Program-made: the position numbers and the translations under genes | Assembly (NCBI GenBank): GCA_038087875.1 | Contig: CM075992.1 | Span: forward strand, 4,528,001 to 4,592,000 | Source of the DNA: Malacoraja senta | Lineage: Eukaryota | DNA length: 64,000 nucleotides | Direction: 5' to 3' | Shown here: positions 10,706 through 64,000 of the stretch, in pieces | Layout of the letters: every line of letters starts with the position of its first letter | Position numbering within the stretch: position 1 is the first letter of the stretch | The notes under the pieces: model-generated | Databases searched by the model: none | The model's input: the letters and a program-made list of their open reading frames with translations, nothing else | Told to the model about the DNA's origin: nothing

Positions 10706-10929
10706 CTGAAATATTGAAACACCAGTAAAAATGAGGACAAGCATAGGGAACAGATAAGAGACATTTTCTAAATGTATTCTAAATTAACAAGATGTCCATT
10801 AAACTCTTTGACCTTAACAAGGGTTCATATAGGGTTGATACTGAGAAGATATTTCCACCTGCAGTGATTCCTGAAGTTGAAAACCACCAATGTAAAATAA
10901 TCACAATGAAAGATAGTGGAAATTTAGAA

Positions 10930-11129
10930 NNNNNNNNNNNNNNNNNNNNNNNNNNNNNNNNNNNNNNNNNNNNNNNNNNNNNNNNNNNNNNNNNNNNNNN
11001 NNNNNNNNNNNNNNNNNNNNNNNNNNNNNNNNNNNNNNNNNNNNNNNNNNNNNNNNNNNNNNNNNNNNNNNNNNNNNNNNNNNNNNNNNNNNNNNNNNNN
11101 NNNNNNNNNNNNNNNNNNNNNNNNNNNNN
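10930..11129. other. Assembly gap (200 N)
   Basis: Run of N. Confidence 1.
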
Positions 11130-15823: not shown

Positions 15824-15833
15824 TTTATTTATT
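15824..15833 (-). terminator. Overlapping AATAAA polyadenylation signals of C3
   Basis: tttatttatt on + strand, ~55-65 nt downstream of the stop codon. Confidence 0.7.
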
Positions 15834-15887
15834 GAAAACCGTTGGGCCTAAATAATGTTTTACAACTTATTTTAAGCTGCAATGTAA

Positions 15888-16029
15888 TTAGTTATCGCAC
15901 TCAAAGGTCTGAAGGTCATCGGCAAACAGCCTCAGGTCGTTACAGAGTTCTCTGAACATCTCCTGTTGGCATTCTGCATTGCTTGGCCACCTTTCTATCC
16001 ATGTGTTTTCTCCAATCAGATATCTCACT
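15888..16029 (-). CDS. C3: C3 terminal coding exon (41-equivalent): [46 protein letters not shown]
   Basis: tttcAG acceptor, TW.E.WP motif, terminal Cys, TAA stop. Confidence 0.95.
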
Positions 16030-37000: not shown

Positions 37001-38383
37001 AGAAGGCAGTGAGCCAAATGAAGGCGTTTCCAGTATAGATACTCTCAGCAAGAGCACTTCCAGTGATGAGTACTTCTTAATTAGTGGCATACTCAGCAGA
37101 AAACACCAGTGTTGCACAGATTGCTCTGATATATCTTGTGAAATTTAGTTTACAAATTTGTATACAAATTAGATCAATCATTCGGCACTGTTCCATTCTG
37201 TGGATTTACGTGGTGGAGACTACCATATTCTGTAACGTTGACTTCAATTTGTACAATGCGTGGAGGTTCTCAGACTTAGAGAAGACTACAGAAGCATCCT
37301 CCTGCCAATGGGATCAGTGGATACATTGGAGACCCTCGGACTATATTTAATCCAGACTTTACTGGAGTTTATCTTGCACTAAATGCTATTCCCTTTATCC
37401 TGTATCTGTACATATAGCTTGATTGTATTCATGTAGTATCTTTCCGCTGACTGGACAGCACACAATAAAAACATTTTTCACTGTACCTCGGTACACGGGA
37501 CGCTAAACTAAATTAAGTACCATCTTGTTCTCCAACACCAGCGTATAACCCACTGTCCAGGCGTGTGTAGTCTCCCAGAAGTAGTGTAACTTACTGACCC
37601 TGATGACATTTCTCTTTATCTGAAGGTAAAAGCTGAATTCCTTTCCCTTGCCACCTCCATGTAGTTAGAATGTGTGTTGCTGCTGTGTGTCAGGGACATG
37701 CTCACAATGGCTAATGTCATCTGACTGCAGCAGAGCAAAGAGGAGATTGGCACTGAAATGAGAGAGGTTCCATGCACAAGACCTGCTTTCGGCTTTGTGT
37801 CTGGATGTAAACCTTACTGACACTTTTACGGTTGGTATTTTTCTTTGTGGGAAATTCAGTTTGGTGTTCATGGAAAAACACTTGTTTGAACTCGGAAAGA
37901 GACATCTAATGCATTTTCAATTGTTTGGAACTTGCTTCTGCAAATAACAAACAATGTTTAGTCAATAGTTTTAAATTTGTGAATAATTGTTTTTTGTTAA
38001 CTGAGGTCACAGAGAGATTTGAAGAAAAGACAAGGAAATGAAATAAGATCACAAATCAATTATGATCTGACAGTAATGCAACAGGCTTGAGGGGCTAATT
38101 CGACTCTTGAGATAGGCAATGTTTCTAATGGTTTCTCTAAATCAAAATTCCTGCTTGATTACACATCACAAACATTAAGCTCATTATGATCTGAGCTACT
38201 TACCGTGCGCAGATTTTTAGCAGGAGTGTATTTAGAGCACCTTCAGGTCGCTGAACTAGAAATATGCAAAACAAGGTAAATTACTGTAATCCCATATACT
38301 TCGATTCCTAATTGTAACTTTAACATAAATAAGTGTAATTTTTCATGAGATTTAAGTAGTTGTTAAAATTACTTTCTGTGCTC

Positions 38384-38434
<51 letters not shown>

Positions 38435-44400: not shown

Positions 44401-47400
44401 GCTTTTGAGTGCTCTTCCGCCAGACTGCTGTAAGCATGTCCACAGTATGCCCAGACAATCCTCTTTTTAAAACCTGCAAATTAACAGATCCATACAGGCA
44501 TATAACGGATGTTACTCTCCAATTATCGGATACACCAGTAAATCCCTTCTTTTGGGAACGTTTATCAGAAACTGTGTCATTAATTCCAATATCAAAGGGA
44601 ACCATGGCTGCGTAGACCAGTCCGGTACCACCAGTACCCCAGAGGCAGCATCCTGCTTCATTTTAAGCAGACACCGGTTTATGAGACAGAATGATGGAAA
44701 ATGCATATAAAAACATACCACCCTAATGTAGCGAGAAAGCATCAATCGCTACTGTCTCCCGATGTAGTTGCCATAACACATATCTCTGTAACTGGTGATT
44801 GAGTCTGGATGGAAACAAGACGTATCTGGCTTCCCAAATCTGACTACTATATCATTAAAATCTTAAGATTCAACATCCATTCTTTGTTATCATGGAAATT
44901 CCCGTAACCTGGTGTCTGCTACTATATTGAATCTACCTGGTAGATAAATAGCTGAAACCAAATATTTGTCAACACACCAAGTCCAGATTTGATTAGCCAA
45001 TTTGTCACATGACACCGACTTAATTCCACCCATACGATTAATACATGCCATTGCTATAGTATTGTTAATTTGAAGTTGAACATGCAGATTAGTTGTATTA
45101 ACAACAAGCTTGGAGCTCATAAGCCTTCCAACAGCTGTAAAACGTTGATTCTCCATGTCTGCAAAAAATAATGCCTCTTCCATATTACATCTTTCCACAG
45201 ATGGATACTATTTCAGTGGCACCAATCCTAGTGCACTGACATCAGTCTGTAAGGCCATGGAAGACTGTTCAATCAGTATCTTGCTCGAACTACTGGAGAC
45301 ATGTTAAATCCACCACTGCAAATCAGAAGCAGCATTTGTTGTTTAACTGCATGGCTTATCAAAATGGCCACCATGCATCTTGGTGCCTTTTCTTTTTGCC
45401 GTCTGTAGCTGCTGGTAGTGCAATGGCCCATATTGTATTGCTGGAAATAACACTAATTTTCCTAGCAAGCTGGCCACCTGTCTTAATTGAAGATTGTTGC
45501 TTTTTCAACAGCTTAATGCAACCATCAATCAGCTCTACCCTTTACCCAGGGTAAAATTACTACCATGTCAATTGAATCGATTGTGAAATTAAAATAATCA
45601 ATTGTTGTAAGTGGCGTTAACCTTGATTTCTCTGGATGAATTAAACCAAAACTTTCAAAAGTGGATTGAACAATTGAGAGAGATAACTCACTAATTCTCT
45701 TGTTCGTCCAATTTAGGGCATCATCCAGTAAGCTGTCCTTGGACTCTAATTAGCCCCAAAATTGGTTTTACCAATTTAGTGAAATTCTAGGAACTGAAGT
45801 TTACCCATTAGACAGAACTTTGAATTGCCATAATTGTTTCATTCAGATAAATTTCAAATATTTAAATCTTACAAATGAACAGACACCGAGTAATATACAT
45901 CTTTCAGATTTATAGGTGCCATATAACATCTTTTGAAATAAGTTGTTTGACAGTCTCAAAGTCTCCATTTTGAAGTGTCTATACTTCACAAAATTTTAAA
46001 GACGTGTCAGATCTAAAATACTCCTCACCTTTTTAGGTTGAGAAAATCTAAACACAATTTGGTGGTTTTGATAAACCAACCTTTCAATTACTTGTTTATA
46101 GACAAATTTTCAAATTCAGCTTGAACCCCGATCGCTTCTTTTTGTGAAATTGGAGTGTTCTGCTGGGAACATGCTGGATGGCAAATCACTATTTGGATCG
46201 AATCAATTCGAAACCTTTGAATAATAGAATAATGAATCTGAAGTAATTTGCTTCCAATATTGGGCTGTTTTTGCCTTAATATGTTACCATGAGAACCAGG
46301 TCCACCTACCTCCTTTGTCACCTGAGTGACCTGTGGTCCCTGGCTCCTGGCAGGAAAACCCATGCTTTTTTGTGTTCCCACTGCAGGACGCCAACTGCGC
46401 CCCTGCTTCAATGCTCGACTTGTTCCTGGTGTAGGCCCAGGATTCTGTATGATGTCTGAAAGGATACCTCCTCTTCACAGACTTGCCGACCATCGATGTT
46501 TTGATCAACCTTGCTGTTTTTGCCTCATCATCCAACTCTTTCCCACGTTTCGTGAGGTTTTTCTCCGAAGAGTAAGTTGAGTGACTGCACATTGCTGGGC
46601 TTTACAGAGTTGTTGCAACCTGGGGTTGATGGTGGGCCGAATGGCATACTTCCTAAAACAATTCATCTCGAAGTGGGCGCTACATAGCAACCCTAGTGCC
46701 TCTTGGTGCATCTCCATCCCTGGCCTCCATCCATTGTTCTTGCAAAAATGCAGTTGTTCCTCAACCCAGCAGCTTCAATATTCTCTGCAGTTTTATTTCT
46801 TAGGCTCACATGCCCTCGCCCATCTGACCCCTTATATCTTGGTTCACTGCTAGTACTTTCAGCAATACGCAGTTCCTTGGGGTCTCGTGCTTTTTTGGCA
46901 TTTTCATCCATCGTAAGCTACTGGAGCTGATGGAAGACAAAATAGTTGATCGTAGAGGCCACTTCTTCTCCCAGTGGCTCTCCTGACTCTGACGGGGCAG
47001 CGAATCGTACTGCCAGGAGTAGAACATCTGGCAGCTGCCGTCTTCACTTGTATCGGCCTCACCGTCAGAGTCAGGGTCAGAACTCTCACAGAGCAGCGAA
47101 TCGTACTGCCAGAAATAGAACATCTGGCAGCTGCCGTCTTCGCTTGTATCGGAGAACTATGCTGACACTGTGCACGCGCCTCATCAATGAAGGAGCTATC
47201 AAGCAGCCCTTTACTAGGTGCTGCTGACCTGGCTTCCGCAGCATGGCTCTGACATCACTCCTCCTGGAGTATGTCTTGTTGGAGCAACCTGTGTACAGGT
47301 TCTCCATTTGGAATATTCACTCAGAAAGTGGTATCCAGCCTTGGAGGTGAATCCCAAACTGACTCTTGCTCCATGGACCTGACTTGCATGTTGGCTAGCG

Positions 47401-50213
47401 CCCAACTGATGCTGGCTCAGTTCTTTTTCTAAATACACAAGTCCACAAGTCGCCCCACTCCCAGCCGGCGACTGTTACAGGGGTATGAGGCAGCCCTTCA
47501 CCAACCGCATTCCCGCGGCTCTCTATCGGCTTTGCGGCTCGCCTCTTGCCCTTGCCCGTTTTGTTCATGGTGCCTGTGAAAAAATCGCAACAGACCACCA
47601 CAGCAAACGGACCTAAAAAACTCCCCAAAAAGTGTTTTACTTACCTTGGAGTTGTAAAAACTACATTCCACTAGAGGAGCTCTGTTCCTCACTTCCGTGA
47701 GCGCCAATGCGTCTGACGTAATGACGCACATGCGCCCTGACGGGTCTTCTTCACGTAGTCACTCACGTGACTCCGAAGTAAAACAACCATTTGCAGGCAG
47801 TGCCTTTTCACTTCAACCCAAACCCCCCAAACAACCATTTGCAGGCAGTGCCTTTTCACTTCAACCCAAACCCCCCAAACAACCATTTGCAGGCAGTGCC
47901 TTTTCACTTCAATCCAAACCCCCCAAACAACCATTTGCAGGCAGTACTTTTCCACTTCAACCCAAACCCCCCAAACAACCATTTGCAGGCAGTGGCTTTT
48001 CACTTCAACCCAAACACCCTAAACAACCATTTACAGGCAGTGCCTTTTCACTTCAACCCAAACCCCCCAAACAACCATTTGCAGGCAGTGCCTTTTCACT
48101 TCAACCCAAACCCCCCAAACAACCATTTGGAGGCAGTGCCTTTTCACTTCAACCCAAACCCCCCAAACAACCATTTGCAGGAAGTGCCTTTTTCCTTCAA
48201 ACCAACCATATTTTCATTTTCAAACCACATTAAGGGCACTCACAGTTGAGTGGACATGTGTTCAGTGTTATTCAGAGCTCAGAGAGACATGACCCTCTGG
48301 CTTCCTCCATCTTGCAGAGACTGAGTGAGGTACATCACTTCCTGGTTTTATAGTCCCTCCCCCTCCCTCCAGCAGGGGCAGCAGAGAGAATGGTAAATGT
48401 TTAAAAAACAATATCTCTCTGATCTTTCATCGATGGGAAAAATCCTCTGGTCCAGGAAGGCGGAGGGGAGCTCTGAGCGAGGTGGCCAAAAATCACGGCC
48501 GTAGTTGGCGGCGTTCTCTCGGATATCACAGCACAGTGAGCCAAAGACGGTCAAGATCAGACTTTTAGTAATATAGATATAGATAGATATATATCTATAT
48601 ATATATATATATAGATATATATATATATAGATAGATATATAGATAGATATATATATCTATATACTATTAAAACTCTGTGTGTGTGTGTGTCTGCTTGACT
48701 TGTGCCAGCCAGCCCCTTTGATTCCTCGCTATGCCACCACCGCACGCAGAAATGCCGAGATTTTTTCCATTTCGGTAGAGACTTCACTTTTCTTTACGAG
48801 TAGCCACTCCTGATTAAATTTTGTTGTGTTTATGTACACTTTTTAAAATAAAATCCATCCCCCGCCCCCCACACTCACTCATTTTGTCTCCTCCTGCTGG
48901 TCAGACACCATAATGGCTGCTGTCGACCGCCTCTGCTCCGAAAACGATGCCATCTTTTTTTCACCAGCGATTTTCATCCCGGGATCTTGATCACGTTCAG
49001 GCTCTAAAACCCCGGGTTCTGAAGCACGTTCTGTGTCCCGGGGTCTGAAGCACGTTCTGTGTTTTATTCGCAAGCTATTTTCACCCCGGGATCTGCACGT
49101 TCGCGATTTTTTCCGCTAGCGATTTTCACCTCGGGGTCTGACGCACGTTCGGGATCTAAAACCCCGGGGTCTGAAGCACGTTCAGTGTCCAGACCCAACG
49201 GGTCTGCACTTGGTCTAGTATACTTTTAAAACTCTGCATGGGTGTGTGTGTGTGGTTGTGGGTGTCAGATTTGGCCTTTGATTCATTGGTCCGCCAAAAC
49301 CACACGCGAAAACTCAGAGATTTTTTCCATTTCGCTAGACATTGCACTTTTACATACCCTAATACACTCATTAGATTTAGACATTTTTATGTACACATTT
49401 TAAAATAAAATCCATCCCCCCCCCCCCCTCACTCATTTTTTCGCCTCCTGCTGACCAGCCACCATAATGGCTGCTGCCGCCCGGCTCTGCTCCAAAAACG
49501 CCAACATTTTTATTCTTTCGCTGGCGATTTTCGCTGCTGCCGCCCGCCTCTCCTCCACTACACCCCCTCCCCCCGGGCCGGCTCTCTCACGCTGGCTCAA
49601 GCACACAGCTCTCCTCCAAAAACGCCGACATTTTAATTTTTTCGCTCCTGTCGCCCGGCTCTCCTCCACTACCCCCCCCCCTCCGGGCCGGCTCTCTCCC
49701 GCTGGCTCAAGCCAAACATCGGCTCTTCCCCGCTGCTTTTCGCAATCCTCTGTCCGAGGACGCCGAAAAGCAGCGGCGGGACAAATCAACTTTGCCTTCA
49801 GCCAGCGTGACAGAGCCGGCGCGTCAACGGCCTGTCGGCCCGCAGCCCCATTGTGGGCGTACGCAACGTCTCGACGGCCGTAAGCAGCGTCTCGACGTCG
49901 TACGCAGCGTCTTGACGCGTACGCCGCCTACGCCGTCAACACGCGTACGCCGTCAAGACGCTGCGTACGACGTCGAGACGCTGCGTACGGCCGTCCAGAC
50001 GCCGTCTACACTGTCAAGACGCTGAAGCACGTTCGGGAAACAGACCCCGGGGTCTGAAGCACGTTCGGGGACCAGACCCAACGGGTCTGCACTTGGTCTA
50101 GTATATATATATATATAAAATATATATATTATATATAATATATGTATATATATATTTATATATATATATTTATATATATATATTTATATATATATAATAT
50201 ATATGCATATATG

Positions 50214-50244
<31 letters not shown>

Positions 50245-53200
50245 CTGTGTGTGTGTATATACACACACACACATACGTACACACAAAAAACAAACAATAG
50301 TAGTGTAATAAGAAGAAGAATAGTATTGTCGCTCAGAGCTTACTAGCCTGATGGCTGAAGGACCACTGTTAGTTAGACCAGGAGTTAGACCACTGATAAA
50401 ATTGAGAAGTAAAGGTAGCATTATTCTTTAACTACATACATTATTTTTATTAGATAACGCTTGGACTTTCGTCCATTTCTGCATCTTCCATCATTAACCA
50501 TTCTCCAAGGAAGAGGCTTTGTTCTTTAAAGTTTAATCTAAGTTGATACCAACTAGAGTTATTGATTATTTGGGATTTACCTTTAACTATTAATATGTCT
50601 GTGACTCTGCCCTGGGGCAAGAGATTAGAATTAATAGAAGCCTGTAACAACCTTGTTGTTATGAAGCAGCCTTCTATTCGCCAGGTGGCTAGGGTAATTG
50701 GCAATATAGTGAATTTTTTTTTCCAGCTGCGCAATTTGGACCTTTGCATTATCAGAATTTACAACGTGCAAAGGAGCAAGCTCTCAAGTACCTTTTAGGT
50801 CATTTTAAAAGACCTATGCTATTACCAGCTGAAGCTATCAGAATTACAATGGTAGACGACCATATTCAGCATTGCTCAAGTAACATTTTGGTCAGTAAAC
50901 CTTCAGTTATATTACAAACTGATGCTAGTGCTCAAGGATGGGGAACTACTAATACCATCTCTAGTTGCGGAGGCAGATGGGATGTGCATGAGTTACCAAT
51001 TCTTCAGTTATATGGTATCAACTACCTGGAGATACTGGGGGCATTCTGTGGGTTAAAGGCTTATTGTGGGAATATGCATAATCTGCATTTTCAACTACAA
51101 GTTGATAACACTACGGCGGTGGCATATATTAATCACATGGGTGGAATCAAGTCAGATTCCTGTGATAGTTTACCTAACCTCATTTGGTGCTGGTGTATCG
51201 TCACATAAATTTAATGACAACACAGAATGGATGTTGGATCACAAAGTATTTAATGATATTGTTGCTCGGTATGGAACACCGAATTTGTTTGCATCTAGGC
51301 TCAATCACCAGTTGCAAAAATATGTGGCATGGGTGCCAGACCCAGGGGCAGTGGCGATAGATGCATTCTCGCTACACTGGGGAGGAATGTTCTTTTATGC
51401 CTTTCCTCCATTTTGCCTCATCAGTCGGGTCTTGCAAAAAATCCAGCAAGATTCCGCTTCAGGCATTTTCATAGTACCTGACTGGCCTATGCAGACTTGG
51501 TTCCCGCTGATGTTGGGAATGATAATAGAACCTTATATGGTTATTTCTAAACACAAAAATTTGCTGGTTTATCCCGTGACTCAGGAAGCCACCCTCTGCA
51601 TGATAGAATCAATTTATTGATTAGCAGACTCTAAGTAAATCGTTCCTGGGGCTCGGGTTGTCAGACTGAACCGTGGACGTGATCACTGCAGCTCGGAGGG
51701 ATAGCACCAAAAAGCAGTACATTTCCTGATCAGGAGATGGGAAGTGTTGTGTTTAAATGCTAATATAACACATAATACGGCACGGATAACTGATGTCTTG
51801 GAGTTCCTTTCAAATGGTTCTTTGACAAAAAAATAAGTTATAGTGCCATTAACTGTGCCACAAGTACCTTGTCATCATATTTGCTGCTGGGATCGGGACC
51901 CATTCTGTCGGGTCTCACCCTATGATATCCACATTTATGAAGGATATCTTTAACACAAATCCTCCTAGGCCCAGGTACACGGTAGTATGGGATATTAACA
52001 TTGTGTTAACACTATTTCGCCGGTGGGCTCCAGCTACGTCCTTATCTTTGGCCCGGCTCTCATATAAGGTACTTATGCTCATGACGCTGGTTTCAGCGCA
52101 ACGCGTCCAGTCGTTGCATAAGCTACGGCTGAACAGAATGGTTATATCTACCAACAAAATAACGTTCTATGTAAATGAGTTAATTAAACTAAGCAGACCG
52201 TTGGGTCTAAAGCTGGAATTTCTGGCATATCCTATGGACCATAGATTGTGTGTTGTCACACATACTCATCAATATTTTAAGGCTACAAAGAAACTTAGAG
52301 GCACTGAGCTGGCTAAGTGTGTTAGACACAAAAAAACACACAAGAGGGTTTCAGTGCAGACCATCTCCAGATGGTTTAGATATGTATTGGCTTGTGCAGG
52401 AGTGAACACTGATGTTTTAAAATCTCACTCCACCATGGCTGCGATAACATCAGCAGCAAGGTTCATGGAGGTTCCGCTGGACCGCATCCTAGCGACAGTA
52501 GGATGGTCAAATGAGCGGACTTTCCAAACCTTTTATAATAAACTGATTGCCAGGCCGGGTTCGTTTGCTAACTCAATTTTAAGTTCTATTCAATAATTTG
52601 CTTATTATTTGCTTATTAGCATCAGCATGTCTTAAATCTATGTCATGTCTGAATGCATTATCTTTTCAATCATTTCTGGTCAACTAATGCAGTGTGTTGC
52701 ATGGACTCGTGTTCGCGGCATGAAATCACAGAGCTTTAAAATCTTCACGTAGTCACTCACGTGACTCCGAAGTAAAATAGGAAGATTAAATGAAAACTTA
52801 CCAGTTTGAAGTTTGATCTTTATTTTATGAGGAGGTACGATGAGGGATTACGTGCCCTCCGCTCCCAACCTTCTCATCAAGGTCATGTGGTTGTTCTAGT
52901 TTCTCGAATCTTCCTATAATCAGTTCAGCAACTGTTTCTGTGATTTCACACCGCTGCTTTGAAGGTTGACGCGCATGCGGGCTGGCGGGCTTCTTCACGT
53001 AATCCCTCATCGTAACTCCTCATAAAATAAACTTCAAACTGGTAAGTTCTCATTTAATCTTCCTATTTATCTTCTTATCTGGCCATTGTCTATCAGAAGT
53101 AGGGTGCTTTAAAATGAATTGTGATCGCTCTATTATATAAGGTTATCAGGTCTATAAAAAAAGGGCCATTAATAAATCCAGAAGGAATTTAACCAAAGAA

Positions 53201-56200
53201 ACATTAGTGACCAGCACTTACTTTTAGTAATCCTTGTCCATGCCCCTTTACCTGTACAGTAAACTTTCAAAGGCATTAAACTGAAATAAAATATAGGTTA
53301 GACATTAGTCTCATCAAGTAAAAATACAATGAAACAGAACTCAGATAAGATTACTAGGGTTTGTGCACCAATACCTTTACTATATGACATACTAACATTT
53401 TATGCTGTCACATTCTGATAAAGGACAAACAGGCATGGAGGTTCCTTGTTCTCAGAATGTGATTGACAAGATGAGAAAGGGAGGGAGTTCTTGTTGTGCA
53501 GTACTGTTGTCCTTCCAACAGTGGGATTTGCTTTACCTAAACTCCCTGCCAGGATCAAATAATGAATTTCTTCCTGTGGCCAATGCATGGAGCAATAGTG
53601 ATAAAGGTACAGATGCACCTTGATGTTTTGGATGTTTACTACTGGATCTTTTTTAAGGCAGTTAAATAGACTAACAATATGCAAGCTTTTGCAAACTTTG
53701 TCCATTAGCTAACAAGGTTGGACTCCAGATTACACCCATGCTCCCTGTGCCCCAGTAGGGTGCTTAAAAGTGACTGAGCAGGAAATATAATGGACACAGT
53801 TGGAAAATACATCATTAAATATCTCTCAGCAAATTTAGTTTAAAGTTTCAGTCTGTTTTTTTTTACAAACCCCAAAGAGGTTAGTGAAGTAATAGCCAAC
53901 AGCATTTGGAACCAACCACTTTTCCAGACACAGCATCATCAAAAAGCAAGGTTGAAGCTTAGCAGACACTTTGGGCTACTTTTTTCTGTGCTTTCACTCA
54001 GCCCCTTGCAAATCTCCAAATGCCTTCCCCATTCACACCCATCCAAGAGTCTCAATTTCCTCCATGCTGTTCTTGCTTCCAATAAGAGGATGAAATACTT
54101 AAGAATTGTCCTTTGATCACTGACCTGCATATAATTCTCTGATTGTACCACTGAATCTGTGAAATTTTACAGAGTAAAACTTAACCTGAAGCAAATTATC
54201 AACTAAGGGATTCAAGCACTAAAAGTCCTGAAGATGCAAGGAAGTGCTGATGCTGGTTTAATAAAAGGATAAAGTGCTGGAGTAAACACAGTGGGTCTGG
54301 CAGCATCTCTGGAGAACATGGATGGTTGACGTTTCGGGTCAGGACCCTTCCTCAGAGTGATTGTGGTGAGGACGGGGTGGTGGGAGAAAGTTGGGGCACG
54401 ACAAGGCCAGAGATGAAAAGATAAAAGGTGTGAGATTAAGTTAGACGAGGTACAAATTGTGAAGCCAGAGGAAGGAATATAGGTGGAAGGTTGGCAGATG
54501 GGGACAAATGGGTTCAAGTCTAGGTGGGGCACAGGGAATAGTGGGAGAAAGGGGATTTGTTTGTAGGTTAGTTACCTAAAATGAGAGAATCTAATGATCA
54601 TACCATTATATTATATGCCTACAAAAGTGGAATATGAGGTGCTGTTCCTCCAGTTTATGTGTGGCCTCATGTTGGTAATGGAGGAAACCTAGGTCAGTAT
54701 GGGATGGAGAGTTAAAATGCTTAGCATCCAGCAGGCCTAGTTGGAAAGATCATAAATGTTCCGTGAAACAGTCGCCGAGTCTAAAGTCTCACTGATATAA
54801 AGTAGGACACACCGGGTACACCAAAAGTGGTTTCTCATTTGACTCCTCTCACTTTCTGCAAATTACAAAGAAAGCAACAGATGGGACATTCCGGCAAGCA
54901 GGCCTGACGTGCCCGATGCGGTTAGGCAGAGGAGGACTCATCTGCCGTGAACCAATGGAGGATCCGACCGGTAGGCGGCTCACCCGCCGTGGTCTCGGGC
55001 AGGTCTCAGTGTTGCAGTTGAATAAAGGGGACTATGGGGCCATGAGGGAGGAGCTGGCCAAAGTTGACTGGAAAGATACACTAGCTGGATGTCAGTGGAA
55101 CAAAAATGGCAGGTGTTTCTAGGAATAATACAGAAGGTGCAGGATCAGTTCATTCCTAGGAGGAAGAAAGATTCCAAGGGGAGAAAGGGACGACCATGGC
55201 TGACAAGGGACGTCAGGGACAGTATAAAAATTAAAGCGAAGAAGTACAACGTAGCAAAGATGAGCGGAAGCAAGAGGATTGGGTAATGTTTAAAGAACAA
55301 CAGAAGATAACCAAAAAGACAATACGGGGAGAAAAGATGAGGTATGAAGGTAAGCTAGCCAAGAATATAAAGCAGGATAGTAAAAGCTTCTTTAGGTATG
55401 TGAAAGAGGAAAAAATTAGTTAAGACCAAAGTTGGACCCTTGAACACCGAAAAAGGTGAATTTATTATGGGGAACAAGGAAATGGCAGATGAGTTGAACA
55501 GGTACTTTGGATCTGCCTTCACTAAGGAGGACACAAACATTCTTCCTGATATAGCAGTGGCCAGAGGATCTGGGGTGACGGAGGAACTGAAGGAAATCCA
55601 CATTAGGCAGGAATGGTGTTGGATAGACTGATGGGACTGAAGGATGATAAATCCCCAGAGTCTGATGGTCTGCATCCCAGGGTACTTAAGGAAGTGGTTC
55701 TAGAATTCGTGGATGCACTGGTGATAATTTTCCAATGTTCTATTGACTCAGGATCCATTCCTGTGGATTGGAGGGTAGCTAATGTTATCCCACTTTTTAA
55801 GAAAGGCGGGAGAGAGAAAACGGGGAATTATAGATCAGTTAGCCCTGACACGGTGGTGGGGAAGATGCTGGAGTCAATTATAAAAGATGAGATAGCCGAA
55901 CATTTGGATAGCAGTAACAGGATCGGTCCGAGTCAGCATGGATTTATGAAGGGGAAATCATGCTTGACTAATATTCTGGAATTTTTTTGAAGATGTAACA
56001 AGGAAAATGGACAAAGGAGAGCCAGTGGATGTAGTGTACCTGGACTTTCAGAAAGCATTTGATAAGGTCCCACATAGGAGGTTAGTGGGCAAAATTAGGG
56101 CACATGGTATTGGGGTAGAGTGCTGTCATGGATAGAGAAGTGGTTGGCAGACAGGAAACAAAGAGTAGGGATTAACTGGTCCCTTTCAGAATGGCAGGCA

Positions 56201-59200
56201 GTGACTAGTGGGGTACAGCAAGGCTCAGTGCTGAGACAGCAGCTATTTACAATATACATCAATGATTTGGATGAAGGGATTCAAAGTAACATTAGCAAAT
56301 TTGCAGATGACACAAAGCTGGGTGGCAGTGTGAACTGTGAAGAGGATGCTATGAGAGTGCAGGGTGACTTGGATAGGTTGGGGGAGTGGGCAGTTGCATG
56401 GCAGATGAAGTTTAATGCGGATAAATGTGAGGTTATCCAGTTTGGTAACAAAAACAGGATGGCAGATTACTAAATGGCGTCAAGTTGGGAAAAGGGGAAG
56501 TACAACGGGATCTTGGGGTCCTTGTACATCAGTCTATGAAAGTAAGCATGCAAGGTACAGCAGGCAGTGAAGAAAGTGAATGGCATGTTGGCCTTTATAA
56601 CAAGAGGAATCGAATATAGGAGCAAAGAGGTCCTTCTGCAGTTGTACAGAGCCCTAGTGAGACCACACCTGGAGTATTGTGTACAGTTTTAGTCCCCTAA
56701 TTTGAGGAAGGACATTCTTGCTATTGAGGGAGTGCAGCGTAGGTTTACAAGGTTAATTCCGAGACTGTCATATGCTGAGAGAATGGAGCAGCTGGGCTTG
56801 TACACTCTGGAGTTTAGAAGGTTGAGAGGGAGATCTCATTGAAACATATAAGATTGTTAAGGGTTTGGTTACGGCTAGAGGCAGGAAGCATGTTCCCGAT
56901 ATTGGGGGAGACCAGAACTAGGGCCACAGTTTAAGAATAAGGAGAAAGCCATTTAGAACGGAGACGAGGAAACACTTTTCTCACAGAGAGTGGTGAGTCT
57001 GTGGAATTCTCTGCTCAGAGGGCGGTGGAGGCGGTTTTCTGGATGCCTTCAAGAGAGAGCTAGATAGGGCTCTTAAAAAATAGCGGTGTCAGAGGATATG
57101 GGGAGAAGGCAGGAACGGGGTACTGATTGGGGATGATCAGCCATGATCACATTGAATGGCGGCAGAATGGCCTACTCCTGCACCTATTGTCTATTGACTG
57201 CAAACCCATCCAAAGACTGTGTCCACTCGAAGGCTCACAGACGTTGGAAACTCACTCGAAGGCTGTTTGGAGTTTGCCCGAAGGGTCACGGTCGGCGGGA
57301 ACTTGCCTGAAGCCTTGCAGTTGATGGGATCTGAAACCCGCCTGAATGCTTGGCAGACATTGTAACCGAGATGGAGCTGGAGAAGTCGTGTGGAGCAAGG
57401 ACCGATAGGAGAGTGCATGGGGTAATGCCTCCAGTGCTTTCAAGGTCAGCTGCAAGAGGCACCCCCGGGACACAAAGATGGCCGATCAAGGAGAGAAGAG
57501 GAGAGGGATGTCAGTTCGCGGCACTGCTCCAGTACATCGAGTGCACGGACCGACCGGACTTTGAATCATGGCGCCAACCATGGTAACGCCTGCATGTGTA
57601 ATATAAGCAAAATAAAATTCACTGTGCAGTTGCATACGTGACAAATAAAGCACTATGACAATTGGATAAGCTATAGCCAGGGGTACTCGAGTGGTTTCCA
57701 GCTATGGCTGCCTTTTTCTTAGTTACAAAAACAGTCCTTGTTCCAGACATACACTGGCACCATCCCCCATCACTTCCTCTGCTACATTGATGATTGCATC
57801 GAGGCTACTTCCTGCACTTGTGAACATCCCCTTAGAAAATAACGTTATGAAAGGGATGTTATAGAAAAAGACATTACAAATGATCAAGAATGAGTAAATG
57901 GGAATAAACACGTAAATCCTCTGGAGAATATAAACAAACCGTTTTTGATTTTGCGAGATATATATTTTGTGGACGAATTGCCCATTGATGAGTATATTGC
58001 TTGCTGGGAATAGATAGATCAATATCCAATTCAGACTTCTTGATAGGAGGAACATCAGTCAGATACGTGGCCATTGCTTGAAGCGCAACCATCGTTGCCT
58101 GGAAAGCAAAATGTTCTTGTTGAATATATTTGCTGAAAGTTCAGACTAAATATCCATGTTCACTAAAACTTGCGTGGAGTAGCAATATATCGAGAGTCTT
58201 ACTGCATGGAAAAAGCCCTTCAGCCCAATGTGTTAATGTCGACCATGATGCCCATTCATAAAGTCCAATTTGCCTGCTTTTGGATCATATTCCCCTATCC
58301 AAGTGCTGTCCATTTCAATGCTGTTATTGTACATGCCTCAATTACTTCTTCTGGCAGTTTGTTCCATTTACCCACTACCCTGAGTAAAAATATTGCTCCT
58401 CAGGTGTGTATTGAGGTTTGCCTCTATCAACTTAAACATATGTCCTCTTGGGTATAAATAATCTATCCATTCACTATCTATTCCAATACTGATTTTATAC
58501 GCCTCTAAGATTATCACCAATAAAACACAAATTCGTTTTTTTGAGTTTCCACCAAAACACACAAACGAATGAGAGGTTTGAAAAATGTTCCAGAAAGAGC
58601 AGTGACATTCCCAAATTGGGAAAGACTCAAATTAAAATTTTACAAAAATGCTGAGTACAAATCTGGGACCTCAAAAGTAATTATGTTATACTTACTTTGA
58701 ACTTTGACACATCTCCTAGGTTCAGGCATTGTTATATAGACCCTGCTAAGTGCAGTAAACTTCCAATAAATTGTTATTCTACTATTTGGAAATCGCGCTG
58801 GTCTGTCCAGCTCACGGGGTAATATTTCCTATGCTCCACGTCCAATCACGGGCTCTGGATCCTGTTCATTCATCGAGTCTGGGTTCCTGTAATTCCCTTG
58901 AAACTTGCTAGATTCTATTTCTCACACTCCCTTCAAACTTCAGGTACACTGGAAAATGTATTATTCAACCTGTTTAACATTAGTGTACTAAAGGTACGCT
59001 GGAATAAAGTCCAAAGTGCAGAAAATATGCTCATCCACCCCCCAAAGTCAAAGGTATGCTGCATTGAGGGAGTTTTACTATGTTTCTCTAAGAAGACCAA
59101 AAGATGTGTCAAAATGCATTTTAAACAGATGTATTCCTTTTGCAATTGTTATTTTCTAGTTTGTCTGGGCAGGTGCACATTGTACATGAGATGTCCAGAC

Positions 59201-62200
59201 AACTACTATATTAATGATGTGCAAAATACATTTAATGTGCAGTTGTACTACCTGTGTAGAGCTGTAGCCTCCTCCATATTCACTCCGTTTCGACAGCCAT
59301 CTCACTAATTTACCAGCTTCGTCATACTGCTTCAGCTGCAAGAGGAATAAAAGTGCATATCCCGTGGCTTCAATGGTGTATAGAGAGTTAGCATCTCCGC
59401 CTACTGGCCAGTGTGATTGGTCTAAAATGATGCCAGAGAAAAATAGTAATTAGTGAAAAATGTGAAAATTAACTGCAGCATCTATTTCAAAGCAGATATC
59501 ACAGTTTCTTGTAGAAACAAGGAAATGCACATGCTGGTTTACTAAAAGGGCACAAAATGCTGGAGTTACTCAGCGGGTCAGGCAACATCTCTGAAGAGCA
59601 TGGATTGATGATATCTTGGATTGGGACCATTCAGACTGATTGTAAGGAGTATCTGGAAGAGAGGGAGAGGACAAAGCCTGGCAGGTAATAGGGTAAAATA
59701 TACAAAATGCTGAAGTAACTCAGCGGTGGAGACGGGAAAATATGATTAGTGGTGGGATCACATTAGAAGTGCTGGAAATGTCAGAGGATGATGTGTTGGA
59801 TGCGGGGGCTCGTGGGGTTAGAGGCAAGGACGAGGGGAACTCTACCCTTGTTCTGTCTGGGGGTGGGGGAAAGAATGAGAGCAGAATTACGGGACACAGA
59901 GGAGACGTGGGTAAGGGTTCCATCTATGACAGAAGTGGGAGGAGGCACATTTACTAAAGGAGGACATCAGAGTTGGGGCACAAGAACTAATCAGACTTAC
60001 CTGGTGAAGCAAATTTCATCACAATTTTCTTCTTGTCCACACCCTTTAGTGAAAGGGCATAAGCTGAAAGTACTGCACCGTAGGATCCCTGAAGGCCTTC
60101 TATGTTGCTCTCCAGGTAACTTACTGCTTTCTTGATAGTGTTCTCATATCTCTAAAATGATATTTGCATTAAATAGCTCTGGTCATACACTTATCCCAAT
60201 CCCGTATTTAACCACGGAAGTTCTCCACTTGATTTTGCACCTTGATGCACTGTCCAATTCCACCCATATGTCCAAACTTGAACTTTAGAGAATTAACATG
60301 ATCCAGTTAGCGAATTCAGACTTCGTCTTAGATGTTAATGGGACGATCTGTATTTGTGCATATTTGTTGATGGAACTAAATTTGAGTTTTGCCACAAAAC
60401 AAAATAGAAATCCAAATGTAATCTGAAGTAACCAAGTCTCCCAAACACAATTAAACTGTCTTTCACAGCTCATCATTTTGCAACTTTGATTTGCTGTCAT
60501 GCAATGATTAACTTAATACTGGATTTGGTCTTATTAATTGAGAGAAAATCTTGACCAACACTTTCCTGCTCCTCTGAAATAATGAATCCACCAGATACCT
60601 TACATTGTAAAATGAAAATGATTTACCGTAACATGTTGTGAACAAGCACTTTGAGCTTCAATTATTGCAATCAGCACAAATGCAGTTAACGGTGCATGGG
60701 TGGTTTCCTTTCCAAGTCCTCCCTTAAGTAAATGAATACACATGAAAAATACTCATGATTAAAACAATGCCTGAAATATGTCAAATAACAAATTTAATTA
60801 AACCGGTGATTTCATTGTGTTCAACAATCAATGGCCAAAATAAATCTCAAAGAAAACTGTCAATTGTCCCGTCAATGTCTGTTGTTGATGATGATTTTTG
60901 CAAGTAATGAAACTACAAACTGTAAAATGGGTTATAGCATTCAATTTACATTCAATTTTGGATGGACATTAAATGTTCTCATCTTGTGAATGAATAACAG
61001 GAATAAATCACCTTTGTTGCTGAAATTTCCTTTGTAATTCATCAAACCTTTAATTTTGAACGTCTTTCAAAGTTTGTTTACTTTTTCCTTTATCTTTTTT
61101 AAATGTCTTCATGTTGAACCACCTCCTCAATCACATGTTTCCCTCTCACCTATCTATTCCTTTGTCTCTACAAATGTTTATATTCTTGTACTTCTCAGAA
61201 CCCTATTCCCCAAATCCCATCATTTCTAAAATTCTCTCCATATTCCTCTCTCTATTTCCAACCTTCATCTACACATTCTTCACAAGATGTACTTCAGTTC
61301 TGCGCATATATGCATTATATTGCTTCTTATTTAAAATAATTCTGTTAATCCAATGCAAGTGCAAGTTCAATGCAAATTTCGATATTCAATCCCTCAAAAT
61401 ATTGAAATTTCAAATTTGCAAACCACACTTAAATTAAATTCTCATTGTATCTGTAATCTAAGATGGCCACTTCATTAGCTCAAATTGTATTTCATTCATT
61501 CATGAGATGTGGGTGTCTGGAAAGATCTACATTAATTGCCTATTTTGATTGTCCTCAACCGAGTGTCTGGTTCAGTAGTTAAAACTCAATCACATTGTTG
61601 TGGGACTGAAATCACCTTCAGCACATAGGGGGCAGCACAGTTTTTTTATCCTAGGAGGACCAGATATGTTTATAACTATGTGCTCTCATGGTCAGCATTG
61701 TTGCAATTAGCTTTTTATTTTATGTAATTAAATCAAATCTGGATTTTTAAAAAAGATGGGATCTGATCACAAAAAGATGGGATGGCTATTTACAGCCATC
61801 CAACGTGCTAATGTTTTCTGGGGAAGAAAGAATAGCCTCTACCTCTTCTGTCCTGAATGTATCCCCAGATCACAGTGATGTGCTCAACTCATACCCTCTG
61901 AAATGGGCCAGTACCTCATTTGGTTCAAGAGATCTTAACAACTGTCAACAAAGGCAGATGACCTGGGGCTGTCTGCTTTCTGTGAACAAAAAAATGGAAA
62001 ACTGTCCCACTTGTCAATGAATTTCCAGAGTCTTGCTGGTATGAATATCCTCTGCTTGTGTTGTCCTATATGATAATTACATTTTTCTATGCAACCAAAA
62101 CAAATGTTACTTACCATAATGCTTTGGTCATGTACTGCATAGTCTTCCACAAAGTGACCATCAGGTTTCTGTTTGTTTAATATCAGCCACTTCACAGCTC

Positions 62201-62274
62201 CACACAGTACACTTCGGTCAATTGTGATCAGGTTACGTGCCATTGCAAATACCTTAACCACATAGGCAGTCAAC
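15888..62274 (-). CDS. C3: Complement C3 (spliced; 3' part: TED C-terminal half, CUB, MG8, anchor, C345C); 16 exons equivalent to human exons 26-41; 5' part including the thioester GCGEQ exon lies beyond the window end
   Basis: Hand-translated exons give C3 motifs [65 protein letters not shown] and a C-terminal FECDN*. Exon lengths and phases match recalled human C3 structure. No C4-type alpha-gamma insert is seen in the exon 32-33 equivalents. Confidence 0.95.
17130..18290 (+). mobile_element. Old degraded CR1 LINE interrupted by a SINE
   Basis: Residual nucleotide similarity to RT 3' half (aattttgcagagggcacaaaaattggtg; catttggaatattatgtacaattctg). Confidence 0.65.
17785..18060 (-). mobile_element. 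V-SINE/HE1-like SINE; fragments also at ~4440-4540, 6165-6325, 6475-6665 and 31115-31255
   Basis: Reverse complement of the same family. Confidence 0.8.
19503..19638 (-). CDS. C3: C3 exon 40-equivalent (136 nt): (G)[44 protein letters not shown](R)
   Basis: GTD and YLIMG..SDLW motifs, AG/GTAAG flanks. Confidence 0.94.
21009..21092 (-). CDS. C3: C3 exon 39-equivalent (84 nt): (V)[27 protein letters not shown]
   Basis: VYK...Y.M.I...IK.G pattern, AG/GTGAGT flanks. Confidence 0.92.
22537..22617 (-). CDS. C3: C3 exon 38-equivalent (81 nt): (G)[26 protein letters not shown]
   Basis: C.PG.DY motif, AG/GT flanks, phase 1/1. Confidence 0.9.
23004..23817 (+). mobile_element. Rex1/Babar-clade LINE 3' fragment with open C-terminal ORF and (CTTA)n tail
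   Basis: [57 protein letters not shown] followed by (CTTA)n. Confidence 0.92.
23845..25288 (-). mobile_element. CR1-clade LINE, 5'-truncated, uninterrupted 427-aa RT/C-terminal ORF (young copy)
   Basis: ORF 23939-25222 with [21 protein letters not shown] and FADD motifs; 3' tail at ~23850. Confidence 0.96.
26160..26555. repeat. 48-bp minisatellite A (TTGAAATGGTATGAAACTGCACTTGAATTTGGTGGCCTTGCACCCTGC), ~8 units; inverted copy at ~41595-41885
   Basis: Direct tandem repeat. Confidence 0.95.
27943..28245 (-). mobile_element. V-SINE/HE1-like SINE
   Basis: Reverse complement of the same family with A and B boxes. Confidence 0.85.
28638..28727 (-). CDS. C3: C3 exon 37-equivalent (90 nt): (T)[29 protein letters not shown]
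   Basis: CTKFY and CRCAE motifs, AG/GTAAG flanks. Confidence 0.96.
29137..29242 (-). CDS. C3: C3 exon 36-equivalent (106 nt): [35 protein letters not shown]
   Basis: AFKVHQ and LIQPAAV motifs, AG/GTGAG flanks. Confidence 0.96.
29832..30124 (+). mobile_element. V-SINE/HE1-like SINE
   Basis: Same family as 38531-38826; (CTAAA)-type tail. Confidence 0.85.
30305..30976 (+). mobile_element. CR1 LINE 3' fragment
   Basis: [13 protein letters not shown]; same 3' UTR and tail as other copies. Confidence 0.92.
31385..31750 (+). mobile_element. Degraded Rex1-like LINE 3' fragment
   Basis: Residual KA.Q.FFLR and WFGNCSAQ-like segments. Confidence 0.6.
31815..32642 (+). mobile_element. Unclassified GC-rich non-coding retroposon-like insert with AATAAA and (TGTCCT)n tail
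   Basis: Abrupt GC shift and LINE-type tail caataaatgtccttgtcctttgtcc. Confidence 0.45.
32735..35502 (+). mobile_element. Head-to-tail array of three Helitron-like units (32735-32924, 32925-33965, 33966-35502)
   Basis: A|TCTAACTATTAAA start; junctions CTAG|TGACTATTAAAACTC and CTAG|TATATATTAAAACTC; final CTAG|T. Confidence 0.8.
35998..36086 (-). CDS. C3: C3 exon 35-equivalent, 89 nt as assembled (1-nt frameshift): LK-(N)[27 protein letters not shown]
   Basis: ttccAG/GTAAGA flanks; YIS..E.DKA and LIIYL.K motifs; needs 90 nt for phase 0/0. Confidence 0.9.
36853..36940 (-). CDS. C3: C3 exon 34-equivalent (88 nt): [29 protein letters not shown]
   Basis: [10 protein letters not shown] motif, AG/GT flanks, phase 2/0. 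Confidence 0.95.
38204..38255 (-). CDS. C3: C3 exon 33-equivalent (52 nt): (V)[16 protein letters not shown](R)
   Basis: AG/GTAAGT flanks, phase 1/2. Confidence 0.9.
38378..38484 (+). pseudogene. RNU6: Full-length U6 snRNA processed retrocopy with poly(A) tail (38485-38506) and target-site duplication
   Basis: GTGCTCGCTTCGGCAGCAC...ACAGAGAAGATTAGC...GCGTTCCATATTTTT matches canonical vertebrate U6; ATTACTTTCT at both 38368-38377 and 38510-38519. Confidence 0.95.
38531..38826 (+). mobile_element. tRNA-derived SINE (V-SINE/HE1-like)
   Basis: A box (tggcgcagtgg), B box (ggttcaatc), core tgtatggagtttgtacgttctccc..gcgtgggtttt. Confidence 0.85.
38931..39689. mobile_element. Non-autonomous DNA transposon (MITE), PIF/Harbinger-like
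   Basis: TIRs GGGCTTGTCCCACTT / AAGTGGACAGGCCC; flanked by 3-bp AAA on both sides. Confidence 0.75.
40994..41084 (-). CDS. C3: C3 exon 32-equivalent (91 nt): [30 protein letters not shown]
   Basis: AG/GTGAG flanks, phase 0/1, C..F.L.IT motif. Confidence 0.92.
42269..42983. repeat. 48-bp minisatellite B (AAACAACCATTTGCAGGCAGTGCCTTTTCACTTCAACCCAAACCCCCC), ~15 units
   Basis: Direct tandem repeat; 16-aa periodicity in the ORF track. Confidence 0.97.
42981..47783 (-). mobile_element. Full-length but degenerate DIRS1-like tyrosine-recombinase retrotransposon
   Basis: ITR core 43054-43089 is the reverse complement of 47722-47757; ICR at 43214-43320; remnants of gag, RT, RNase H ([17 protein letters not shown]), methyltransferase-like domain ([10 protein letters not shown]) and YR. 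Confidence 0.92.
47781..48200. repeat. Continuation of 48-bp minisatellite B, ~9 units
   Basis: Same unit resumes in register after the DIRS. Confidence 0.97.
48656..50101 (+). mobile_element. Two tandem Helitron-like units (48656-49218, 49219-50101)
   Basis: A|TCTATATACTATTAAAACTCTG; both end cagacccaacgggtctg-cacttggt-CTAG|T. Confidence 0.82.
50102..50285. repeat. (TA)n/(TG)n/(CA)n microsatellite; others at 3116-3157 (GT), 8286-8318 (GAATT), 48572-48660 (TA/GATA) and 63520-63560 (AAT)
   Basis: Simple repeats. Confidence 0.95.
50400..53068 (+). mobile_element. 5'-truncated DIRS1-like retrotransposon (RT end, RNase H, MT, tyrosine recombinase, ICR, 3' ITR)
   Basis: [49 protein letters not shown]...F..FY; ICR 52743-52854; ends in TTT. 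Confidence 0.93.
53222..53280 (-). CDS. C3: C3 exon 31-equivalent, 59 nt as assembled (1-nt frameshift): [20 protein letters not shown]
   Basis: tttcAG acceptor, GTAAGT donor; FTV..KG.GQG matches C3; needs 60 nt to keep phase 0/0. Confidence 0.88.
54230..54810 (-). mobile_element. Degraded Penelope-like 3' fragment; shorter relatives at ~6045-6160, 9560-9870, 22345-22490, 36530-36680 and 59515-59960
   Basis: Shares gatgctgg...gctggagtaa...gcagcatctct...gacgtttcgggtc tail with the 6.7-7.8 kb copies. Confidence 0.7.
55003..57197 (+). mobile_element. CR1 LINE, 5'-truncated, frameshifted ORF2
   Basis: [28 protein letters not shown] and FADDTKL fragments; 3' tail. Confidence 0.95.
57940..58098 (-). 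CDS. C3: C3 exon 30-equivalent (159 nt): [53 protein letters not shown]
   Basis: ttccAG acceptor, GTTTGT donor, phase 0/0. Confidence 0.92.
59252..59421 (-). CDS. C3: C3 exon 29-equivalent (170 nt): (D)[56 protein letters not shown]
   Basis: EATGYALL and YGGGYSSTQ motifs; AG/GT flanks; phase 1/0. Confidence 0.95.
60001..60151 (-). CDS. C3: C3 exon 28-equivalent (151 nt): [50 protein letters not shown]
   Basis: ttttAG acceptor, GTAAGT donor, phase 0/1, AYAL motif. Confidence 0.92.
60627..60722 (-). CDS. C3: C3 exon 27-equivalent (96 nt): [32 protein letters not shown]
   Basis: AG/GT flanks, phase 0/0, LTAFVLI motif. Confidence 0.93.
62115..62274 (-). CDS. C3: C3 exon 26-equivalent (160 nt): (W)[53 protein letters not shown]
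   Basis: AG acceptor 62275-6, GTAAGT donor 62114-62109; strong similarity to C3d. Confidence 0.96.
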
Positions 62275-62679
62275 CTTCACTTAGAGAAATGCAACATACA
62301 TTCATTCCATTAAAAAAAAAACAGGGTAGAAATTAATCTTTCATACACCCTCACATAAGAACTTCTAGCTATGTGTTTTGAAATTTTACACCAGTAGTGG
62401 AACATAATCTGTTACTGCATTGCCTGTCTTTCCCAGGCACAACTAGACCTAATTACAGCAAGGAAGATAGATATTCTGAAATTAATAATTTAAAAAATAA
62501 TCAAATGAAAGAAACGTTACCCACTGAGACCTTATAGAAACTATTGCAATTGTTAATTCATTTGCGCTACCGTTAGGCAACTGACTTATTTTCAATGGAC
62601 TCTTATTTCCATACTTTTATCCAAATGGGAATAGTTCACAATAGTGAATACATATTTCTAAAACAATTCACAGAGCTAT

Positions 62680-63480
62680 AGAGCTGTACAGCATGGAAGC
62701 AGAGACTTCAGACCAACTCATCCAAGCCATAGAAGACATCTGACTGAGCTAGCCACATTTGCCTAAATCTTGACATTATCCCTCCAATGCTATCCTTTTC
62801 AAGTATCTGTCCAAATTACTTTTAAATGTCATAACTGTATCCGTCCCTGCAACTTCGTTTGGCAGCTCATTCCATATGTGCACCACCCTCACTAGGAAGA
62901 GGTTGTCTCACAGATTCCTTATAAATCTTTCCACTCTCACCTTAATTCGAGTTTTAGAATCCTTCACCTTGGCTAAAATAAAATTGCTGTTCATCTTATT
63001 TATGCTCTCATGATTAATATGCCTCCATAAGCCCATTCCTTGGTCTCCTAGATTCCTTGAAAAAAATGACCCAGCTAATTAGGCCTTTCCTTATAATTAA
63101 ACCGTCCAAACTCATTAACATCCTCGTAAGTAATTGTAAACCCTTTCCGGTTTAATAACATCCTTCATACTCCTAACATGGCCTCGCTAATTTTGAACAG
63201 TTATAACATGGTTTTCCAACATGTGCACTCCGTGCCCTGACCGATGAAGGCAAACTTGTCGAATCTCTTCTTTGCCACCGTCTACCTATGTGGCCACTTT
63301 CAGGGAACAATGTACCTGTGCCCCTCAGTCTCTGTTCTGTAACACTACCCAGTCCCATGCTGTTTACTGCCCTGGTTTGTCTTTGTAAAATGCAATACCT
63401 CATATTTAACTGAGTTAACTACATCTGCCATTCCTCTGTCCATTGACCCAGTTGATCAAGGTCCCATTGTAATCAGAGAT
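62680..63480 (-). mobile_element. Old degraded CR1 LINE 3' fragment
   Basis: Diverged reverse-complement similarity to CR1 3' region. Confidence 0.6.
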
Positions 63481-63579
63481 AACTTTCACTGTTCACATTT
63501 TCTTATTTGAAAATATATAAATAAATAAATATAAATAATAATAATAATAATAATAATAACTAGAAAAAACAAAAAACAA

Positions 63580-64000
63580 ACTGAAAGTAAGCATGCAGGT
63601 ACAACAGGCAGTGAAGAAAGCAAATGGCATGTTGGCCTGCATAGCAAGAGGATTTGAGTATAGGAGCAAGAAGGCCCTACTGCAGTTGTACAGGGCCCTG
63701 GTGAGACCACACTTGGATAATTGTGAGCAGTTTTGGTCTCCTAATTTGAGGAAGTACATTCTTGCTATTGAAGGAGTGCAGCATAATTCCCAGGATGGCG
63801 GGACTGACATATGATGAAAGAATGGATCGACTGGGCTTGTACTCACTAAAATTTAGAAGGATGAGAGGGAAATCTTGTAGAAACATATAAAATTCTTATG
63901 GAATTGGACGGGCTAGGTGCAGGAAAAATGTTCCCGATGTTGGGGAAGTCCAGAACCAGGGGGCCACAGTGTAAGAATAAGGGGTAGGCTCTTCAGAACT
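63580..64000 (+). mobile_element. CR1 LINE fragment running off the window end
   Basis: [27 protein letters not shown]. Confidence 0.92.

Follow-up and report, generated by a model that had tools for sequence, protein, structure and literature searches.

A tandem skate C3 duplicate with an intact thioester motif and aspartate in the register of the catalytic histidine

C3 is the hub of complement, and a single residue decides whether it becomes attached to sugars or to proteins. The amino-group preference of C4A, which has Asp at this site, is reportedly the subject of Carroll 1990, to go by its title. In C3 and C4B, a His attacks the exposed thioester to give a short-lived acyl-imidazole that reacts with hydroxyls (PMC7864068, PMC9156758), whereas C4A, with the motif PCPVLD, prefers amino groups and C4B, with LSPVIH, hydroxyls (PMC7927756), in agreement with the premise of an initial annotation of the locus described here that His steers the thioester of C3 and C4B to hydroxyls and that C4A, with Asp, prefers amines. 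The H1084N change in A2ML1 abolishes conjugation to glycerol and leaves that to glycine, and the N1088H change in A2M brings little hydroxyl reactivity, so that more than the His is needed (PMC7864068). The site in C3 consists of His1126 and Glu1128, and trout C3-4 has Thr at the His position (PMC6983669). Both an H-type and a D-type C4 have been described across the jawed vertebrates (PMC7768046). Human C4A (PCPVLD, Asp1106) and D-type C4 (C4.2) resemble the skate gene considered below in having Asp in the His register, V-x-D, an intact thioester and a His-type sister gene (PMC7927756, PMC7768046), and ratite D-type C4 reads HPVLD; they differ from it in that the skate gene is a C3 by its phylogeny and has no tetrabasic alpha-gamma match in its 3' half.

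His-less C3 has so far been treated as a teleost trait. Nakao 2000 is said, by its title, to concern a His-less C3 in carp, in keeping with the initial annotation, which took non-His C3 isotypes to be known there; carp C3-S, as its name suggests, has Ser at the site. Carp C3-S and trout C3-4 (Thr; PMC6983669) are, like the skate gene, C3 paralogues without the catalytic His that exist beside a His-type C3, yet the skate gene has a separate origin, in cartilaginous fish, and carries Asp where these teleosts have Thr or Ser. The Labeo protein P0021 (EDHPVRDSEM) is a cyprinid Asp-type C3. For cartilaginous fish, a recent survey gives few C3 duplicates (PMC7768046), and two C3 variants are reported from nurse shark and catshark, with no comment on the catalytic residue in the accessible part of that paper (PMC6795676). 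In the open-access literature, no paper on a His-less C3 in cartilaginous fish was found, and the accessible parts of PMC3356312, PMC3274692, PMC9207270, PMC8960428, PMC13255059, PMC8577214 and bioRxiv 10.64898/2025.12.13.694092 hold nothing decisive; the primary shark literature may already record a loss of His, because nurse-shark P0035 lacks it. Already known, then, are His-less C3 in carp and trout and D-type C4; added here are the recurrence of His loss in cartilaginous fish and an Asp loop shared by skate and catshark.

The window, that is, the whole 64,000-nt stretch of Malacoraja senta DNA analysed (G000:C16:4528001-4592000), includes the exon that encodes the specificity loop of a C3 thioester domain. 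It is compared below with its best protein match and orthologue, Amblyraja radiata P0001 ('complement C3-like'; 85% identical over the exon), with P0028 ('complement C3-like') of the catshark Scyliorhinus canicula, and with contigs from runs X1, X2 and X4. Positions are counted from the catalytic residue.

62115..62274, minus strand: C3 thioester-domain exon with the specificity loop; 160 nt, AG..GT-bounded, stop-free translation
62127..62129, minus strand: GAC, Asp aligned without gaps to His1126 of human C3
62130..62132, minus strand: CAT, His at -1, where His-type C3 has Ile; the residue is also His in P0001, P0028 and run X4, Arg in run X1 and Leu in run X2
62121..62123, minus strand: AGC, Ser at +2, in register with Glu1128; P0001 and run X1 have Arg
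62139..62141, minus strand: TAT, Tyr at -4, where His is found in run X2, run X4, catshark P0028, Labeo P0021 and ratite D-type C4

Human C3d (DGVFQEDAPVIHQ) aligns with the skate exon without gaps, Asp falling on the His of APVIHQ and the skate His on the preceding Ile, which bears out the original reading of Asp at the His1126 site, Ser at +2 and a His one residue earlier. The coordinates first given for it (62115-62144) lie inside the right exon but cover only the last 10 codons of the peptide then quoted, which begins at 62153. The 160-nt length, described at the time as conserved, is that of two genes, the Asp gene and the His-type C3 of the same genome, 225 kb away, whose orthologous exon reads FEEIGPVIHGEMI and aligns ungapped with the Asp exon. 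A search of solved-structure sequences with the Asp exon returned 27 matches at E<=0.01, namely 26 C3 chains and cobra venom factor, and no C4. When the chondrichthyan C3 paralogues are aligned, as had been proposed, Asp stays in the catalytic register, while the Ser at +2 is not fixed.

The Asp is not a sequencing error, since P0001 has it (EDYPVHDQRIM) and GAC also stands at this site in the X1 and X4 contigs. The X1 contig, with Arg at both -1 and +2, departs from the window in the exon at four non-synonymous sites and one synonymous site, and is identical to it over 75 nt of intron; run X2 has Leu at -1 and, at the catalytic position, an incompletely read codon that is not a His codon; the X4 contig reads EDHPVHDKSIM, all 6 differences over 62095-62174 being accounted for. 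Intron similarity suggests that the source organisms of the three runs are skates. Asp is thus kept in P0001, X1 and X4, whereas -1 and +2 vary. Between the Asp and His genes of the skate, residue changes in this exon number 9 in the last 12 codons but 4 in the first 41, and along the gene the identity of the exons ranges from 70% to 98%, a pattern that would fit a loop under diversifying selection combined with patchy gene conversion. A canonical C3 or C4B has His in the 1126 register, with Glu at +2 in C3; the window gene has Asp and Ser in these places and is therefore classed as a non-His C3 isotype and not as a canonical C3, having an intact thioester motif, no catalytic His, and a His-type paralogue in the same genome.

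The -1 His is common to the window gene, P0001, run X4 and catshark P0028, and if it (or the -4 His of other species) took the catalytic role, the protein would stay hydroxyl-reactive. A one-codon deletion plus a one-codon insertion aligns its CAT with the His codon CAC at the price of fewer substitutions (by eye), and the DNA may be compatible with such a history; the loop, however, is as long as that of the His-type exon. Along the same line, 7 of the 9 Asp-type rows, and none of the 99 His-type rows, have a -4 His (129 proteins, 7 unmatched by the pattern and 1 mis-matched), five of the seven being related ratite C4s, so that about three lineages are concerned, yet this position is Tyr in both P0001 and the window gene. 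Asp is moreover kept with Arg at -1 in run X1 and Labeo P0021 (VRD) and with Leu at -1 in ratite D-type C4 and human C4A (VLD). Because related contigs have Arg or Leu there, the -1 His is probably no substitute for the catalytic one, and a take-over of catalysis by a shifted His is quite improbable. A structural check on this point failed to overturn the ungapped register: in the predicted domains of P0001 (Asp) and P0019 (His), the same short helix, 144-147, comes directly after residue 143, an agreement that is weak and not independent because the models follow the alignment. The loop of the P0001 model (pLDDT 72-77) is among its less certain parts, and the fold search with this domain yields whole-fold matches, without residue-level register.

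That the gene is a C3 follows from several lines of evidence. G000:C16:4609098-4608895 (window-equivalent 81098-80895) holds the thioester exon, GCGEQNMAS, 19 kb upstream of the Asp exon and with no gap between, so the motif, whose presence upstream was to be checked, is intact on the same gap-free stretch. Trees were built from the 3' half with the loop columns dropped (LG+G4 without mixture; a quick tree of 48 rows and a careful tree of 35 of those), with C4 rows as outgroup and no C5 rows included. In the careful tree, the Asp gene is sister to P0001 inside a six-row skate C3 clade (100/100) and does not group with C4. Its 3' half is 88% identical to P0001, which also has GCGEQ, 78.5% to the His-type neighbour and 30-31% to the C4 rows. 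The initial claim of a C3 paralogue in a cartilaginous fish is thus upheld by the grouping with skate C3 instead of C4 and by the thioester motif. A C4 identity is ruled out by the 30-31% identity, the trees and the absence of C4 from the structure matches, and a C5 identity by the presence of GCGEQ, whereas C5 is without thioester (PMC7768046). The predicted thioester domain of P0001 has a pLDDT of 87.7, and all 50 listed fold matches are C3, C3b or C3d (best TM 0.90). The beta-alpha tetrabasic site, RKRR, is present in both candidate 5' halves (across scaffold gaps from the 3' half), while a pattern search of the 3' half for the alpha-gamma tetrabasic site gave no match; 6 of 7 C4 rows match the same pattern. 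Anaphylatoxin, macroglobulin and C345C/NTR domains figure in the Pfam list of P0001, whose exons map across the skate locus. In other words, the gene has the Asp of C4A and D-type C4 at the catalytic position, but neither C4 ancestry nor three-chain processing was found for it.

The C4 genes of this genome sit on contig C18, the C3 cluster on C16. These C4 genes themselves vary at the site, with Met and a -4 His (FEDPHPLLMKAMQ) or with His (PMWHKDVK) at C18:8055248-8055403 (L029) and C18:8654190-8654345 (L093), and two Amblyraja C4 proteins have Ser.

Mapping of C3 proteins over 664 kb of contig C16 gave four minus-strand C3 pieces parted by N gaps, which, with the further exons of the window, are as follows.

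15888..64000, minus strand: Asp-type C3 gene, 3' part; 16 of its exons fall inside the window, beyond which it continues
60722-60627, 60151-60001 and 59421-59252, minus strand: three thioester-domain exons after the Asp exon, open, with canonical splice sites
15888..16029, minus strand: last coding exon with stop codon (second assembled copy at ~10567-10707)
15888..64000 and beyond the window, minus strand: the same piece as the Asp-exon 3' half, residues 945-1651, with the Asp exon and its thioester exon on one gap-free stretch
C16:4.43-4.335 Mb, minus strand: His-type C3 gene, which carries FEEIGPVIHGEMI
G000:C16:4509462-4446782 (L064-L071), minus strand: C3 5' half 'B', residues 1-859, with at least one frameshift, in exon 2
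G000:C16:4697378-4626946 (L034-L041), minus strand: C3 5' part 'A', residues 1-1067, with its own thioester exon, GCGEQNMAR

A and B are 92% identical as proteins. P0001 sides with B at 39 of the 65 sites that differ between them and with A at 13, and it sides with the Asp half at 8 of 15 differing sites versus 4; for these reasons B and the Asp half are likely one gene, their contigs mis-ordered in the scaffold so that B sits downstream of its partner. Residues about 860-944 of this likely 5' half were not found in a search of the genome and are missing from the assembly. Copy A is likely a third C3 whose specificity exon is missing from the assembly; the 8 kb before the gap were searched for this exon and did not yield it. 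Genome searches gave two C3 copies each of the exon in which the Asp lies (8 candidates scored; one copy is the His-type one), of a later exon (9 scored, 3 of them weaker matches of 42%) and of the exon from residue 855 on (7 scored). All in all, this genome has at least three C3 copies. Because three exons recur upstream at ~95% DNA identity, one gene carrying a pair of thioester exons was weighed as well, but it is less likely than separate paralogues, given another near-complete 5' half at C16:4.51-4.45 Mb that P0001 favours (39 versus 13 of the 65 sites).

Two further observations concern the assembly. A GC-rich block at 32001-36000 of the window (55% against ~42% around it), within a C3 intron, is probably a mobile element. 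Several near-identical alpha-2-macroglobulin-like thioester exons (GCGEQNMVKF) are found on the unplaced contigs C5373, C5273, C4314, C4530 and C2927, and represent a family that has either expanded or not been collapsed.

Downstream of the thioester domain, two exons of the Asp gene each lack one base.

53222..53280, minus strand: exon one nt shorter than its His-type counterpart (59 versus 60 nt); 1 base missing near 53264, beside a short homopolymer
35998..36086, minus strand: exon one nt shorter than its His-type counterpart (89 versus 90 nt); 1 base missing near 36079, in an A run

Two single-base deletions within 2.1 kb of coding sequence could mean that the Asp copy is a decaying pseudogene and that its loop changes reflect relaxed constraint, all the more as the locus is in fragments with an extra partial copy and the thioester Cys is lost in some elasmobranch paralogues, 4 of 36 C3 rows. 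With both breaks read as X, however, the assembled 3' half has no in-frame stops, and 18 of its 18 introns are GT..AG. The noise of the assembly can be gauged from 5.1 kb, including the last C3 exon, that were assembled twice about a 200-N gap at 10930-11129 of the window (6637-10929 and 11130-16252): the overlap is 99.3-99.5% identical, with 19 indel events versus 9 substitutions, mostly single-base homopolymer indels, and is likely a false duplication. At that rate, ~3.9 indel errors are expected in the 2.1 kb of coding sequence, some of the duplicate differences possibly being allelic, and 2 are seen. The His-type gene of the same genome also has a frameshift, and the orthologue P0001, with Arg at +2 and Pro at -3, has an intact frame and is an intact protein of 1651 aa. 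Given the indel rate of the duplicate, the frameshift in the His-type gene and the intact P0001, assembly error is likelier than true frameshifts, and decay of the Asp copy is unlikely.

The loss of His is not confined to skates. The chondrichthyan C3 set comprises 36 rows from 22 species, namely 34 database proteins and 2 from this genome; three further His-type rows, P0016, P0038 and P0040, were dropped because they are partial or redundant. The database rows come from the best 120 of 2457 matches in a protein database clustered at 90%, and the counts are for this reason not genome-wide. Among the matches listed, the catalytic His is absent in 16 of the 36 rows, and it is absent with GCGEQ kept in 14 rows from 12 of the 22 species; three of the His-less rows have a one-residue insertion that leaves the register uncertain, and no His in the loop. 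The state of the catalytic site changes 12 times on the chondrichthyan C3 tree.

A C3 paralogue clade of carpet sharks (P0035, P0037 and P0042, of nurse, zebra and bamboo shark) has a one-residue insertion and a loop devoid of His (PVLYLKTM), with its thioester motif intact. The thioester Cys is lost in P0018, P0024, P0025 and P0036 (GSGEQ, GDGEE, GSGEG and GHGEQ), the first being the apparent orthologue of the His-type gene of this genome. Elsewhere among vertebrates, His-less C3 paralogues with intact GCGEQ were noticed in turtles (P0072, P0120), a newt (P0118), a frog (P0122), Labeo (P0021) and Coilia (P0107); the turtle PVMAKSM resembles the sawfish PVMAGSM.

A case in point concerns the catshark. 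The loop of P0028, EDHPVHDKSIT, is identical over 10 contiguous residues (EDHPVHDKSI) to the run X4 contig, and shares His at -1, Asp at 0, Ser at +2 and Ile at +3 with the window gene, yet the two proteins are 53% identical overall and P0028 groups among sharks, its sister being Mustelus P0033, with a different His-less loop. P0028 and the window protein share five residues that are absent from 12 His-type elasmobranch rows, four of them in the 10-residue loop and one in the ~690 other positions; among the other shark rows, 15 of 16 share none of those in the loop and 1 of 16 shares one (corrected binomial ~1e-6, post hoc). An AU test of the 3' half, from which the loop was excluded so that it stands outside the test, rejects a clade of the skate and catshark Asp-type genes (p=0.0009). 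The likeness is hence either strong convergence or an old loop patch kept via gene conversion. Convergence is plausible from the sequences, because the -4 His goes with Asp and not with His in the counts given above. The motif H-P-V-x-D is found in skate, catshark and cyprinid C3 as well as in ratite C4. It is conceivable, though somewhat doubtful, that a C4A/C4B-like dichotomy in C3 predates the shark-ray split, the EDHPVHDKSI patch surviving amid gene conversion, and that H-P-V-x-D with its His(-4)/Asp pair is a distinct thioester-tuning module, not mere loss of His.

Ichiki et al. 2012 reportedly found, according to the title, that the C3 isotypes of carp have spectra of binding to natural targets that are independent of thioester specificity, and for this reason the chemistry may not set the target range. 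One might accordingly regard the loop change as mainly one of surface, for receptors, regulators or microbial inhibitors, with the chemistry shift a side effect of little influence on the targets opsonised. The two skate genes have diverged over the entire loop and into the beginning of the following exon (two 10-residue windows have identities of 0.1 and 0.4), and across sharks and rays His is replaced by many residues (A, S, T, Q, R, Y, D). Against this, Asp arises five times on the tree at exactly the catalytic position, and Asp there defines C4A and D-type C4, so that thioester chemistry is indicated and a mainly surface role is very unlikely.

The gene is a tandem skate C3 duplicate with GCGEQ and with Asp for His, the activated form of which probably binds amines in the manner of C4A, as the initial annotation had proposed. 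Since Asp replaces His, the acyl-imidazole is likely not formed, and binding would occur mainly through amide bonds to amines; by analogy with the chemistry of C4A and A2ML1, the Asp-type skate C3 may favour the tagging of amines (protein) over that of sugar. The steps envisaged are that the protein is expressed and forms its thioester, that convertase cleaves it, that the activated form, without an acyl-imidazole, makes amide bonds to target amines, and that it may thereby serve, next to a sugar-directed His-type C3, as an opsonin aimed at amines. As to expression, run X20 (presumed RNA) gave one contig, His-type and apparently spliced, which says nothing on the Asp gene because a contig can attest that a sequence is present but never that one is absent; in run X2, contigs confined to exons have a far greater depth than those that include intron, an RNA-like picture, yet the run is recorded as 'DNA?', and depth cannot rank the genes.

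To sum up, the 14 His-less rows with GCGEQ in 12 of the 22 species, among the matches listed, together with the three or more skate copies, suggest a recurring division of labour in the oldest antibody-bearing jawed lineage. The near-identical Asp loop of skate and catshark offers a natural test of whether C4A-like C3 chemistry is ancient or has been re-invented repeatedly, and the natural loop variants form a set with which the roles of Asp and the adjacent residues at the site can be probed.
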